Shown: positions 2,927 through 56,557 of the stretch, piece by piece | How the letters are laid out: every line of letters begins with the position of its first letter | How positions within the stretch are numbered: position 1 is the first letter of the stretch | Notes under the pieces: model-generated | Told to the model about the DNA's origin: nothing | The model's database searches: none | What the model saw: only the letters and a program-made list of their open reading frames with translations | Source: Octopus vulgaris | Lineage: Eukaryota | Direction: 5' to 3' | Length of the DNA stretch: 64,000 bases | NCBI GenBank assembly: GCA_951406725.2 | Contig: OX597837.1 | Location: forward strand, 4,712,001-4,776,000 | Program-made: the position numbers and the translations under genes

Positions 2927-2961
2927 GTTTCTGACGAAGAGCTCCGCTCGAAACGTTAAAC
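2927..2961 (+). ncRNA. Minimal Penelope-type hammerhead motif
   Basis: GTTT CTGACGA A GAGC tcc GCTC GAAA CG T T AAAC, within a repeat at about 2855-3062. Confidence 0.65.
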
Positions 2962-3674
2962 CCTCCTTCTTTCCTTCTTTCCTGAGCGTCCAATAATACT
3001 ATATTTATTCCACGTCCTCGCGTTGTTGTGTTTTTTTTTGCGCTTTCTTGTTTGAATTAACTATATATATATATATATATATACATATATATATATATTT
3101 TTTGTGCTTTCTTGGTTGGATTAACTATATATATATATATATATATATATATATATATATATATATATATATATATATATTATATTTTTTTTTTTGTGCT
3201 TTCTTGTTTGGATTAACTATATATATATATATATATATACATATAAAACCCTGCAAAAATGACTATCCCCTTCTTCCCCGAAATTACAGGCCTTGTGCCT
3301 ATAACAGAAAGGATGATTATTTCTACTATTATTAATATTATTGCTGTTGCTGTTGTTGTTGATAGTGTTGTTTTAAAAGAATTTCGGAAGTGTCACTGCC
3401 CAAAGATATCAATGGCAATCTCCACCCCAAAACCAACCGCCCACTCCTACATGTAAGAAAGAATCCATCCTGGCCCCCCACCCACCTCCACGCCAAATAC
3501 GCAGCAGTGTAATTCACACCAGGAAACAAGCTTTAAAATGTCTTCGTGTTAAGAATAATTAAAACAAGAACAAAACAAAAACGGAGAATACAACATGTCT
3601 GGGGTAGCATAAACAATATGTCGGTTTCAAATGGAATGTGCCAGTTCTAAGTTCCTGACACACAGACATCTTAT

Positions 3675-4098
3675 TTATTCTGTTACTTGTTTCAGTCACC
3701 TGACTGTGGCCATGCCGGAGCACCACCTGATTCTTTGTAAGCCTAGTACTTAGTCTATAGGTCTTTTGTTGCCGAACCATTAAGTTACGGGAACGGAAAC
3801 ACACCAACATCGGTTGCCAAGTGATTGTGGGGGGGACAAACACAGATAAATACATATCTCTCTCTCTCTCTATATATATATATATAAATATATATATATA
3901 TATATATATATATATATATATATAATTTTATATACGATGGGCTTCTTTCAGTTTCCGTCTACCAAATGCACTCACAAGGCTTTGGTTGGCCCGGGGCTAT
4001 GGTACAAAACACACGCCCAAGTAGCCACGCAGTGGGACTGAGCCCGGAACCATGTGGCTGAGAAGCAAGCTTCTTACCACACTGCTACACCTGCGCCT
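3675..4098 (-). mobile_element. SINE family A copy
   Basis: Colinear with 2241-2651; internal (TA)n expanded. Confidence 0.8.
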
Positions 4099-4518
4099 GT
4101 ATATATATATATATATATATATATATATATATATATATATATATATATATATATATATATATATATATATATATATATATATATATATATATATATATAT
4201 ATATATATATATATATATATATATATATATATATATATATATATATATATATATATATATATATATATATAAATATATATATATATATAAATATATATAT
4301 ATATATGGCCGCAGTCAAAATGACTGAAACAAGTAAAAGAGAAAAGAGATATATATATAAATATATATATATATAAATATATATAGGAGATGTACTCGTA
4401 GCAAGTAATTTGATCTGAGATCGTGTGCTGAACGAAAACAATTGAAGCATGGAAGGTGTTTAAAGCCATTTAAGAAACACACAAAAGCCGTTCGATTCAC
4501 TTCAACATTTAAGTTTAA

Positions 4519-4568
4519 TTTGTCAAAATATTTTCGTCGCTAAAATGCGCGACCTGTTCACTGACAAA
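4519..4568 (-). ncRNA. Minimal type I hammerhead with G3-C8 swapped core (inverted partner)
   Basis: Minus strand reads TTTGTCA GTGAACA G GTCGC gcatttta GCGAC GAAA ATAT T T TGACAAA; loop II differs from the partner while the stems are retained. Confidence 0.72.
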
Positions 4569-52400: not shown

Positions 52401-53784
52401 GATAACTCATAGAATTCTTTCCGACAGTTCGTTTGATGCATTTTAAATCATGTTCATCGTTTCCCAAAGTAAAATAAATGAAACAGAAACTGGATCAACC
52501 GACATATTAACCCTATACAAAACACCTGTTTTCTAATTAAGGAAACTGAGTTTTTTTTTTACTTAAGGTAAACGAAAATCCTTTGTTATTTTTTAGCTCT
52601 TTCGGTATGTCCTTATCTGAAAATATTTCTTCTGCTTGTTGAAACCTCCCAGCATATGCATTGACATATTCTTTCCTGTTTTTTCTTACCTTTGTATTCA
52701 ACACTTTCTACCTCTCAAGATCTTTACTGTCAACTTCATCACTTTCGTGTTTGACTAATTTCCAGAGCAAGGAGAATCACATCTCGTATTCGAAAATTCC
52801 GTTTTTCTGCAGGTTTGGCAATGTCGTATCAAACAAAGTTGAGTTTTTTTATTCGATTTATTTTTAAGATCATAGAAAGATATATCAATCTCTTCAAGCT
52901 ATTCACGCCACTGTATTTGTTTATCTATAAGTAGTTTTTCAATGGTGATGTTTAAAATGGCTACTTGTCAGAAGAACTTGTCACCGTGGAGCAGCATAAG
53001 TGAAAACATGCGACAAATTACCATATTCCTTGCGGTTCCTGACAGTATCCACCTTAAACACCTTCTGCTATATAATCCAGTAAAAGAAGATGCAAACAGG
53101 TTAGGGTTATTGCCTATTATAAAGAACGCCTCTGGTATGATAGAATAACAAGAAACAAGTTTTTACTTCGTTTATTTCTTATTTCTCTATTACCCACAAG
53201 GAGCTAAACAAGGACAGACAAACAAGGACAGACAAACGGATTAAGTCGATTACATCGACCCCAGTGCGTATCTGGTACTTATTTAATCCACCCCGAAAGG
53301 ATGGGAGGCAAAGTCTCCCAACCAGAATATCACTGTTATTCAATAGAACTGTACCGATTAAAACAAACGCTTCTCACAGTTTTCTTTTTTATTTTTCTCT
53401 AATTCATTTCAACAATGATTTCACAAATATTTGTGCCGTTTTCAGATACTTTCTTTCAGTTTTTTTTTTATAACATATGTAATTTATCATTGTTCATAAT
53501 CTATTTTAGTATGTAATCATATTATTAGTTAATTCATTATCTTATTTAATCTATTTCAATAATCGATTTGAGGATGCACAGTCTACAATTTATTACATTT
53601 TTATTATCTATTTTATTATTTAATTACCTAGATTATTATCTAATTTAGTTCTATAATGGATTAATAAATATTTTGTATCTTACTCCAATATCGTAATTAT
53701 TTTGAAAATGTGCATATCATCTAATTTATTATTATTATTATTATTATTATTATTATTATTATTATTATTATTATTATTATTATT

Positions 53785-54035
53785 ATTACCTCCGCCTTAG
53801 CGAAGATGGAGGTATTATTTTCAGTCGTGCTTGTTTGTTTGTCCGTAGACAAGAGAGACCTGAAGAACCGCTGTATGGATTCGGTTGAAACTTCCAGGGA
53901 TGTGTAGCCTCGTGAATGGCACGAACGGATTAGATTTTGGGATCGATCCGATATCGGACAAGGATTCTGGATTATTTTTCCGTTTTCTTGAATTAATTTT
54001 CGAGAGCGGTCGGGTTCATTTTTTAGTATTCTCGT
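53785..54035 (+). mobile_element. Helentron-associated (DINE/HINE-like) element, 5' portion
   Basis: Starts TTACCTCCGCC (complementary to the GGCGGAGGT subterminal repeat near 6650); GTTT microsatellite; sits in (TTA)n. Confidence 0.55.
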
Positions 54036-56521
54036 TATTATTATTATTATTATTATTATTATTATTATTATTTGCATATTTGCTGCGAAATACATCGGAA
54101 GTGTTTTCGAACGCTCCAAGTAAATTCAGTTCAAAATATTTATTTACACCAGGATTGGTGTTGTTTTACAATATTCATTTCATTCTAAGTTGTTAATAGA
54201 AACACCAGGAACCTGTAACTGGTTTTCTATGGTTGTTTAGCCCCTAGAGTGGCCATATTCATCTCACCAAATAATTTCGGTGAGCGTTTAACTTAATTGA
54301 ATCAAATATAACACAACAAAATGGCGTAACGCGTCTTGAAAGAGTTGAGGAAAGATAAAACAACTCCTCCTACGAACATGACAACAGCTAAAAATTCTCA
54401 CCACCACCCGTTACTGGCAACAATACGGGGGAAGAAGAGGAGGAGAAAAACAAGACTGTCCCGGTACAAAGTCCACCTAACAGTAAGAACAACAGTAGCA
54501 GAAACAGCATCAGCGGTAGCAACGACAACAGCAACTGCAATAGTGACAGCAGCAGCCGCAGCAGTAGTAGTAGTGACAGCAAGAACGACCACGAAAAAGA
54601 CAGCAACTGCAGCGTCAGTAGTGATAGCAACAACGAGAGCAAAAGTGACAACAGCAACAACAATTAATCCAATACCAGGAACATCGACAAGAACAACGAC
54701 AACCACAACGGCGGTAGTAGCAGCAACAACAACAACGAGAACACTACCAACAGCAAAAGCCCATTCGCAGCAGCAGCAAAGAAGAAACAACGCTTTACAG
54801 TGGACCTCACAAATAGGGAACAGATTCTAACGCAAGCATGGAAACTAATTAAACAAGAGAAAAGGTGGGCCAGTCTAACTATTTCCGTCAGAGGCAATTG
54901 AAGCAGTGGAGAACGGTGCTTTTCAGATGCATTCCAGCTGACACGAAATGAGCGGCTTTAAATAGCTCCAGTAGATATTGAGGCGGTGCTGAGATGCGTC
55001 AGAAATAACATCGAGTACATAGCGAGGGCAAACAATATGGCGCCATTTCCGTGCTGTTTAAGTTAGAAACCCTCGCTATGAAACGTTCAGTGACCTGTTG
55101 CAAAACCAGCAAAGTCATTATGCACACCTCCCACATAGAGGAACGTACAGCACGTGTCTGCATCCCTAAGATCCCACCAGGACTTGATATTTGGTCGCTT
55201 CTGGGATAAGAATACAAACAGTTATTAAAAACATGAATATAAATTATTAAAATCCTTTACAGCTGTTTCAGCCTATAGATAATAGCAACTCATTGTGCCT
55301 ATATATGTATATATATATAGGCACAGGTGTGGCTGTATGGTAAGAAGCTTGCTTCCCAACCAGTTGGTTTTGCGCTCAGTCCCACTGCTTAGCATCTTGG
55401 GCAAGTCTTATATTATAGCCTGGGGCCAACCAAAACTTTGTGGGTGGATTTGATAGACGGAAACTGAAAAAAGTCGGTCGTGTGTGTGAGTGTGGGGGGT
55501 GTCTTTGTGTCTGTCTCCCCATTGCCACTTGACAACCGGTGCTGGTGTGTTTACTTCCCCATAAATTAGCAGTTCGACAAAAGAGACCGATAGCATAAGT
55601 ACTAGGCTTAAAATAAAAAGTAAGTCCTAAAACCCTTCAAAGCGGTGCTCCATCATGGCCGCTGTCAAACGGCTGAAACGATGTATCGAAATGTTGTACA
55701 AATATTATATTTGCATAATGGTTTCTTATTTAGGCACATTGACACCAACTTTGGTGGCAGAGAGAAACGTCTATACCATCAACCTCCAACTTGGGCTTTA
55801 AACCTCATCGATCGCGAAAGGATGAAAAACAAAGCTGACCTCTGCAGTATTTGAACACAGTAATAAAGATTCGCAAGCAAAGATCTTACCGCACGGCGCT
55901 CCTACAATTCTGCCAAACAAACCACGTTATTAAATCATAACTCCAAATGATTAACCACTTTAAAAATCTTCTGAATTATTTGAAAATTGAAATCTTTTTA
56001 CAAATGTTACATTTGCATGATAAAAACCGAAACCATTTCTAAAACGCAATGTTAGTTGAATATATATGGTTCTTAAAGCAATTATAGCTTACGCATATTT
56101 TGGCTTCTACATAGAATATTTTAAATTCTTCTATAATAGATACTTCAGAAATTTCTCCAATATTTGCATATCATAATTTCCTCTCTTCATTCTTTAAACA
56201 TTGCGTAATACTTACTCTTTTCCGCATTCACTTGTTTCAGTCATTTGACTGCGGCCATGCTGGAGCACCGCCTTTACTCGAACAAATCGACTCTATGACT
56301 TATTCTGTGTAAGTCTAGTACTGATTCTAGCGATCTCTTTTGCCGAACCACTAAGTTACGGGGGTGTAAGCACACCAGCGTCGGTTGTCAAGTGATGGTG
56401 GGAGGACAAACACAGACACACAAATATATACATACATATCGTTAGCCACTACACACATTTCTTCTCTCCTTTTTTTCTCTCCTTGTTTCTCTCCTTGTTT
56501 TTTCTGTGTCCCTTTCTGTCC

Positions 56522-56557
56522 CTTTCTGTAGAAGAGCGTAGGATCGAAACGTAAAAG
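56522..56557 (+). ncRNA. Minimal hammerhead-like motif with A6U core (copy 2)
   Basis: CTTT CTGTAGA A GAGC gtag GATC GAAA CG T A AAAG; host repeat about 56440-56655 matches about 34195-34385. Confidence 0.5.

Follow-up and report, generated by a model that had tools for sequence, protein, structure and literature searches.

The 64,000-nucleotide stretch of the Octopus vulgaris genome analysed here (assembly GCA_951406725.2, contig OX597837.1, positions 4,712,001 to 4,776,000; hereafter the window) comes from a 2.8-Gb genome in 227 contigs and is dense in microsatellites and in repeats resembling short interspersed nuclear elements (SINEs). An initial annotation had marked 16 sites in it as about 15 type I hammerhead ribozymes from seven or eight non-coding repeat families, and had attributed them to retroelements mobilised by the reverse transcriptase (RT) of a Penelope-like element (PLE). 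All 16 sites proved to belong to hammerhead families. They resolve into 13 insertions and eight families, within the range foreseen: A (2927, 7701 and 8451), B (4519/4589 and 39649), C (11674), D (18915 and 38739), E (20748/21239), F (26548/27041), G (34256 and 56522) and H (42090), with A and G related to one another. Two further hammerheads, one in a copy of family E cut by an assembly gap and one in a decayed copy of a ninth family, were absent from that first list. The features are given below with their strand; L numbers denote other genomic loci.

2848–3059 (+): family A, 5′-truncated copy ending in (TA)n; minimal hammerhead 2927–2961, core CUGACGA, stem III ACGU
4397–4721 (no single strand): family B two-armed (inverted) insertion, the 3′ end of a coding PLE; hammerheads 4519–4568 (−) and 4589–4639 (+), core G3-C8
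7586–7834 (+): family A, older copy; hammerhead 7701–7735
8447–8629 (no single strand): family A two-armed insertion; decayed hammerhead 8451–8486 (−), U4C core, stem I broken
11414–11899 (+): family C retrozyme, roughly a single 506-nt repeat unit; decayed hammerhead from 11674, GAGA in place of GAAA; core intact and canonical in L243
18913–19007 (+): family D fragment; decayed hammerhead at 18915, U4C core, stem I mismatch
20499–21573 (+): family E retrozyme insertion with (TA)n on both sides, consisting of an inverted arm (20499–20665, short 3′ end), 491-nt units from 20666 and a long 3′ end; canonical hammerheads 20747–20853 and 21238–21344
22871–22995 (−): ninth hammerhead family, decayed copy, 74% identical to a copy in L015
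26205–27256 (+): family F retrozyme, two identical 493-nt units and a short 3′ end in (TA)n; hammerheads 26548–26623 and 27041–27116, U4C core
31938–32142 (−): another family E insertion, interrupted by the assembly gap, with just the 3′ portion of its hammerhead visible
34190–34381 (+): family G; minimal hammerhead 34256–34291, U at core position 6
38633–38904 (+): family D two-armed insertion, the 3′ end of a Hydra-clade PLE; hammerhead 38739–38801, U4C core
39298–39715 (−): family B copy with a SINE-like repeat inserted at 39405–39635; decayed hammerhead 39649–39699, without the 3-8 pair
41852–42229 (−): family H young copy (99% identical to others), the 3′ end of a Hydra-like PLE; canonical hammerhead 42090–42169
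56522–56651 (+): family G copy; decayed hammerhead at 56522, stem II mismatch

Our descriptor of the type I fold required stem I, a 7-nt core with a 3-8 pair, stem II, GAAA, a palindromic stem III, UH and stem I′. With a strict core in which the 3-8 pair was permitted to covary, it matched six sites in the window, against an average of 0.1 over 20 local dinucleotide shuffles; when one core change was permitted, it matched 12 sites compared with 0.55 in the shuffles, and none in the reversed sequence. Under a second filter the result was 12 sites compared with 0.45 (40 shuffles). Eleven of the 16 listed sites passed this filter (2927, 4519 on the minus strand, 4589, 7701, 20748, 21239, 26548, 27041, 34256, 38739 and 42090 on the minus strand), five with the canonical core CUGANGA, two with G3-C8, three with U4C and one with U6. 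The other five (8451, 11674, 18915, 39649 and 56522), with the lesions listed above, are decayed homologues of the same eight families. As had been stated, all families have a stem III that is palindromic or close to it. These hammerheads are real and well above chance.

The twelfth descriptor match is a doubtful additional motif within family E (21127–21177, +), with an A6C core and spanning the junction between units. We rejected it as a second hammerhead, as its stem I is mostly G-U and its predicted fold is a different hairpin. It is unchanged in E2, a 90%-identical relative of E, and is probably a conserved signal of another kind with weak stems. The Rfam hammerhead models gave no match on the family E or the family A stretch scanned singly, and none among the best 150 of 507 whole-window matches, which were dominated by microsatellite matches to microRNA models. 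As a practical point, Rfam misses a large ribozyme-bearing fraction of the octopus genome.

Stem pairing had been described as kept while the stem sequences differ. This was borne out by compensatory changes between homologues: a stem II A-U to G-C change and a change of the stem III centre from GC to AU between E and E2, a stem I G-C to C-G change between A and G, altered stems II and III between H and L177, and an altered stem III between the window copy of C and L243. These relatives were found by homology and offer few independent pairs, compared without R-scape, and pairing has been lost at sites among the five decayed ones.

Upstream walks from families B, D and H led into PLE coding sequence. 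Upstream of B, L211 contains, ~1 kb ahead of the hammerhead, a 683-aa frame with motifs of RT and GIY-YIG (read by eye), a CX2-5CxxC linker and a tblastn match to a Neptune-type protein (E-value 6e-4); the end of this frame was also found in L188. Upstream of D (L214, L152 and L154) lies an RT C-terminus followed by an endonuclease with a CxCX5C linker. The H walk (L228, L234 and L237) reached an endonuclease 37–39% identical to that of D and stops short of the RT core. In the same three H loci, an insert of ~140 aa rich in Ser and Asn replaces the linker finger between RT and endonuclease, in copies that are still 99% identical. By motifs and tblastn, rather than by a tree, D and H fit the Hydra clade as described in PMC8557442. 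In their longer copies, B, D and H run directly on from PLE coding sequence, and so are truncated 3′ ends of coding PLEs. The assertion that all families are non-coding and non-autonomous does not hold for these three, and C, E and F alone are tandem retrozymes; the proposed link to PLEs stands, both through this contiguity and through the insertion signature of the E and F arrays described below. Within the window, a remnant of a Hydra-type GIY-YIG domain lies at 33289–33459 (−; 33% identical to family H, E-value 3e-6), with no hammerhead found adjoining it.

A and G are probably, as we infer, the last 100–400 nt of longer PLEs. The A insertion at 8447–8629 is enclosed by a 166-nt inverted repeat (95%; 8278–8443 and 8767–8932). 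The top matches of A, B, D, G and H are almost all solo or inverted copies rather than tandem units. L177 contains several adjacent B copies with (TA)n between them, and in L191 two B copies lie 3.1 kb apart with no PLE protein match in between.

A search of the genome for GIY-YIG domains gave 6136 candidates, and 148 of the 150 that were scored matched, many in identical 781-aa open frames. L091 represents a complete young PLE, with ORF1 followed by RT and GIY-YIG domains joined by a CX2-5CxxC linker (Pfam RVT_1, E-value 1e-6, just below the cut-off; GIY-YIG, 4e-7, above it). Its family ends in terminal repeats with a U3-A8 hammerhead, lies in (TA)n targets and has two 3′ ends 40 nt apart. 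The 3′ region of L091 (4700–5220) contains what we take to be repeated CCAAT-like and TGACGTC boxes, with a TATA box exactly at the start of the terminal repeat, which suggests a promoter in the upstream terminal-repeat copy.

Families C, E and F are organised differently. Their units of 506, 491 and 493 nt, respectively, form head-to-tail arrays of one to 17 full units at dispersed loci on many contigs, with only further units or flank upstream; the units are non-coding and contain one type I hammerhead each. By this organisation we class them as tandem retrozymes of the type without long terminal repeats (non-LTR). The top matches to E and F are 97–100% identical, and we analysed the anatomy of 50 insertions, 25 of each family, taken from top-scoring loci with each insertion represented by a single locus. 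Their 5′ ends are scattered within the unit. The 3′ ends fall at two sites 103–106 nt apart, and 68 of 81 adjoin TA-rich DNA. Of the 50 insertions, 31 are two-armed: 29 of them combine a short with a long 3′ end, each of the remaining two has one irregular end, and none has two alike. Because the 3′ ends lie ~130–250 nt downstream of the predicted cut, priming must be internal to the unit. Two classes of 3′ end were also seen in B, D and H, as in the L091 family. In their (TA)n targets, 5′ truncation, inverted arms and one-sided tail, the E and F arrays match the PLE insertion signature. Classical twin priming, in which one arm stops where the other starts, was considered for the inverted arms and accounts for just 2 of 17 E cases inspected by eye.

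The tails of C, E and F share short motifs with several other TA-anchored families, including ACCCT just before the long end, in an alignment with a mean column identity of only 45% that includes one misplaced row. This hints at a common PLE partner. Further TA-anchored families with these tail motifs were seen at L199 (4076–4710), L236 (2090–2500), L046, L068, L159, L219 and L235; reading by eye shows a canonical hammerhead in the L236 copy.

Sequence variation among units bears on how the arrays arose. Units within an array diverge by 0.34% in E (234 pairs) and 0.47% in F (58 pairs), compared with 0.96% and 2.3% between arrays. Among the variants common to several insertions, 18 were fixed across units and arms and two segregated in E; the corresponding numbers in F were 84 and 18. 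As shared variants are mostly fixed in all units and in both arms, each insertion derives from one haplotype, which argues for E and F insertions integrating as ready-made multimers and not by purely local growth. Thirteen of the 18 segregating F variants come from L200, where successive units of the F array form a mosaic drawn from several haplotypes; this suggests template switching or conversion. The L194 array shows later internal exchange.

We consider it highly probable that all eight families are hammerhead-bearing terminal repeats of a PLE system, made up of the ends of coding PLEs and of ~500-nt retrozymes that borrow the PLE RT/GIY-YIG protein. This reading combines the observed anatomy, copy structure, ends and coding links with a putative priming mechanism and partner. 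The ends seen in B, D and H, and presumably A and G, would be left by early termination of target-primed reverse transcription, and the non-coding units of C, E and F would be copied by the borrowed protein. Its endonuclease would nick both strands of a (TA)n tract, and each nick would prime complementary DNA (cDNA) at one of two fixed AT-rich unit sites ~100 nt apart, 130–250 nt past the ribozyme cut. The enzyme would then copy one unit length or many from a single template haplotype, be it an uncut multimer or a circle, and head-to-head joining of the two cDNAs would give the inverted form. The hammerhead would most likely be a slow or conditional cutter that frees units from read-through RNA; for A, G and B, where stem III has one or two pairs and no usable loop, cleavage would be expected to depend on dimers.

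Several observations weigh against this interpretation. The regions upstream of A, searched in 30 loci and three extended ones, yielded no coding sequence, all A copies being cut short after a few hundred bases, and the B and H frames went undetected by Pfam. In the small sample of PLE families compared, none of the autonomous elements had sequence in common with C, E or F. The tails, at 96–106 nt in C, E and F and ~175 nt in H, are longer than the published 30–40 nt. Finally, there is no genomic footprint of cleavage: genome-wide, E junctions fall at the cut site 13 times, compared with 17 and 26 times at two control sites.

The identity of the template allows a sub-case of the PLE scheme, in which the C, E and F arrays are produced by rolling-circle reverse transcription of a self-cut and circularised monomer RNA. 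We regard this as a serious possibility and lean slightly against it. It agrees with the prevalence of fixed variants within arrays and with 3′ ends lying inside the unit rather than at the cut. In run X1, a single closed contig of 523 nt (493+30) represents the F unit and does not differ from the window copy, and run X9 gave a 523-nt contig of another F haplotype with 11 differences. However, an uncut multimer transcribed from a uniform source array predicts the same variant pattern, and polishing of the assembly may homogenise units. Closed contigs also arise from tandem DNA, which gives the same shape as a circle, and the RNA status of both runs is a guess. Moreover, seven of the 31 two-armed insertions contain variants common to both arms yet absent from some units (one case lies in a homopolymer), which fits linear multimers or later gene conversion.

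The ribozyme cores raise the question of whether cutting is required at all. The core was CUGANGA in 126 of 127 copies of E and in 31 of 31 of H, and this canonical form is shared by C and by part of A, where 26 of 45 copies have CCG and 19 CUG, a mixture that could come from CpG decay. The remaining families are non-canonical: B has GUGAACA (G3-C8, with the pair kept) in 39 of 43 copies, U4C is fixed or nearly so in F (75/75) and D (33/35), and G has U6 in 15 of 19. Overlapping loci were merged by flank identity only for these tallies, so some copies may be counted twice. Both U4C and A6C are natural variants with lowered activity, and U4C and changes at A6 reduce activity in vitro, as reported in the relevant part of PMC3088659. 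In folding of the isolated motifs, stems I and II took the hammerhead arrangement for B and F and not for D and H; we did not use this as support.

One reading is that the fold is retained for a structural role or for dimerisation, in which two templates or units would pair, and that cutting is dispensable for spread. We doubt this view without dismissing it. In its favour, families with putatively slow cores (F, D and G) have spread well, only one of nine Xenopus retrozyme dimers was cut according to the section of a 2026 preprint drawn on here (bioRxiv 10.64898/2026.07.22.740005), and 5′ ends do not pile up at cut sites. None of the 37 F arms has its 5′ end within 5 nt of the predicted cut, no 5′ end lies within 7 nt of the cut in A (20 copies), B (25), H (11) or G (4), and none lies within 3 nt in D, for which the list was swamped by TA matches. 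In E, four of 41 arms have their 5′ end no more than 5 nt from the cut (expected 0.9; p = 0.013; three at −1 to 0, from two insertions); we rejected this excess as a cleavage footprint in light of the genome-wide junction count given above. Templates cut to monomers are thus not a major class among insertions, and the junction counts are otherwise neutral on cleavage in vivo. On the other side, G12-A13-A14, the U16.1-H17 rule and 3-8 pairing (C-G, U-A or G-C) are kept over ~22 families, though the descriptor required them, and U4C still supports viroid infectivity in the same part of PMC3088659.

A 2026 preprint describes a route by which arrays could instead be satellites grown in situ by unequal crossover from single PLE ends. 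The 17-unit L194 array, with internal variants in non-adjacent units, is what such local exchange predicts. We find this origin quite improbable for the arrays as a whole, as they occur at dozens of unlinked sites with random 5′ start points and two fixed 3′ sites, and as both arms of inverted insertions contain several in-phase units, which local growth does not predict. The likelihood that the sites are chance matches in AT-rich low-complexity DNA, or hairpins of the type of miniature inverted-repeat transposable elements, is practically nil: the descriptor yields ~0.5 chance matches per window and five of the 16 sites fail it, but the excess over shuffles, the conservation of motifs within families, the compensatory changes and the constant position upstream of PLE 3′ ends all speak against chance, and the hairpin at 4397–4721 represents, with its unequal ends, an inverted insertion of a PLE rather than a terminal-inverted-repeat element.

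Returning to the PLE scheme, a more far-reaching form of it would unite C, E, F and their relatives in one superfamily, in which circular RNA is copied repeatedly by a single PLE enzyme through the shared ~100-nt tail and two internal priming sites, and in which the success of U4C, U6 and G3-C8 would mean that the fold and not fast catalysis is selected. We think this unlikely in its entirety.

A first look across the genome gave 2148 candidate loci for F, 817 for E, 1809 for A, 1981 for D, 664 for B, 1864 for H, 1622 for C and 3205 for G; these are not copy numbers, and the best 40 were scored per family. The 0.99 Mb of genomic loci gathered by homology contained 681 descriptor matches in 29 clusters. 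Removal of seven probable chance clusters (six weak ones and the second motif of E) leaves 22, with A and G forming one cluster and C added afterwards, so that about 22–25 hammerhead families occur across these loci, in line with the large radiation that had been postulated. The flanks of other repeat-rich loci gave 21 matches in 269 kb (a few of them by chance), or one per 12.8 kb, compared with one per 5.3 kb in the window. The window is only about twice as dense as such loci, and is unexceptional. A rough extrapolation from these biased loci puts genome-wide motifs at the order of 10^5.

The window had also been called gene-free. No host coding open reading frame was recognised in it, only transposon remnants; short exons could still be present. 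An (AAT)n tract is followed, at 57490–58074 (+), by the 3′ end of an R2/R4-like non-LTR element, with a frame of ~195 aa that contains a zinc knuckle and a restriction-like endonuclease and has a weak Pfam zf-RVT match. A short frame at 5272–5523 (+) resembles what we take to be the N-terminal DNA-binding part of a Tc1/mariner transposase. Tandem copies of a 184–217-nt SINE-like repeat occur at 16721–17323, 40350–40754 and 47067–47431, and a second SINE-like family is present in over 20 copies across the window.

For other animals, both classes of element and the derivation of retrozymes from PLEs have already been published, and the octopus families add members to these classes; the comparisons that follow refer to parts of the papers cited. 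In 2014, PLE repeats were reported to contain minimal hammerheads of the dimer type, in thousands per genome (Cervera and de la Pena, PMC4209133), including the U3-A8 core. The octopus motifs are alike in their type I fold, short helix I, extra base after A9 and palindromic helix III, and in forming many families per genome, mostly of solo truncated copies with some opposite-strand pairs. That report covered other animals, including Lottia and Crassostrea, and octopus and squid were not found in those of its supplementary files that were searched. The octopus differs in having whole families fixed for G3-C8, U4C or U6, and several with long stem II extensions.

Animal non-LTR retrozymes were described in 2020 with PLEs proposed as mobilisers (Cervera and de la Pena, PMC7229834), and have been argued to derive from PLE terminal repeats (Li, Clavereau and Pollet 2026, bioRxiv 10.64898/2026.07.22.740005). 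Like these, C, E and F have non-coding, low-GC tandem units with one type I hammerhead each, and coexist with PLEs. Their units of 491–506 nt exceed the 170–400 nt of the former study and lie inside the 51–972 bp of the latter. The main text of PMC7229834 makes no mention of octopus or cephalopods in the parts cited, and the sample of the preprint comprises 31 vertebrates, three insects and one coral. In the octopus, the link between retrozymes and PLEs comes from insertion anatomy and not from sequence homology.

The endonuclease-positive (EN+) Hydra and Neptune PLEs (Craig et al. 2021, PMC8557442) likewise show (TA)n targets, 5′ truncation, inverted 5′ copies, a tail at one end and a hammerhead near the 3′ end, with the CxCX5C linker seen in D and the CX2-5CxxC linker seen in L091 and B. 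The octopus elements differ in tail length (~100 nt in C, E and F and ~175 nt in H) and in the Ser/Asn-rich stretch of H that stands in place of the linker finger. The same paper lists cephalopod Naiads with half cores only. Among cephalopod annotations, 235 Rfam 'hammerhead 1' loci were reported in the giant squid (PMC6962438) and 30 recently active Penelope families in O. vulgaris (PMC13282606); in the portions cited, hammerheads are not linked to PLEs and retrozymes are not named, and the main text of the octopus paper contains neither 'ribozyme' nor 'retrozyme'. Beyond the giant squid matches, we found no literature on cephalopod PLE hammerheads or retrozymes, nor any on the insertion anatomy of non-autonomous hammerhead elements, in a search outside which most subscription papers lay.

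PLE hammerheads and animal retrozymes are thus known, and the questions that remain for the field are what mobilises the retrozymes and what the ribozyme does. Published support for mobilisation by PLEs consists of co-occurrence and terminal-repeat homology; the young E and F arrays add support from individual insertions for PLE mobilisation in the form of ready-made multimers. One genome with active families that have canonical, G3-C8, U3-A8, U4C and U6 cores provides a panel for asking whether the rate of cleavage matters. Should the far-reaching, single-superfamily form of the scheme hold, the octopus genome, with of the order of 10^5 motifs from over 20 families, would serve as a natural series in which the purpose of PLE hammerheads could be tested.

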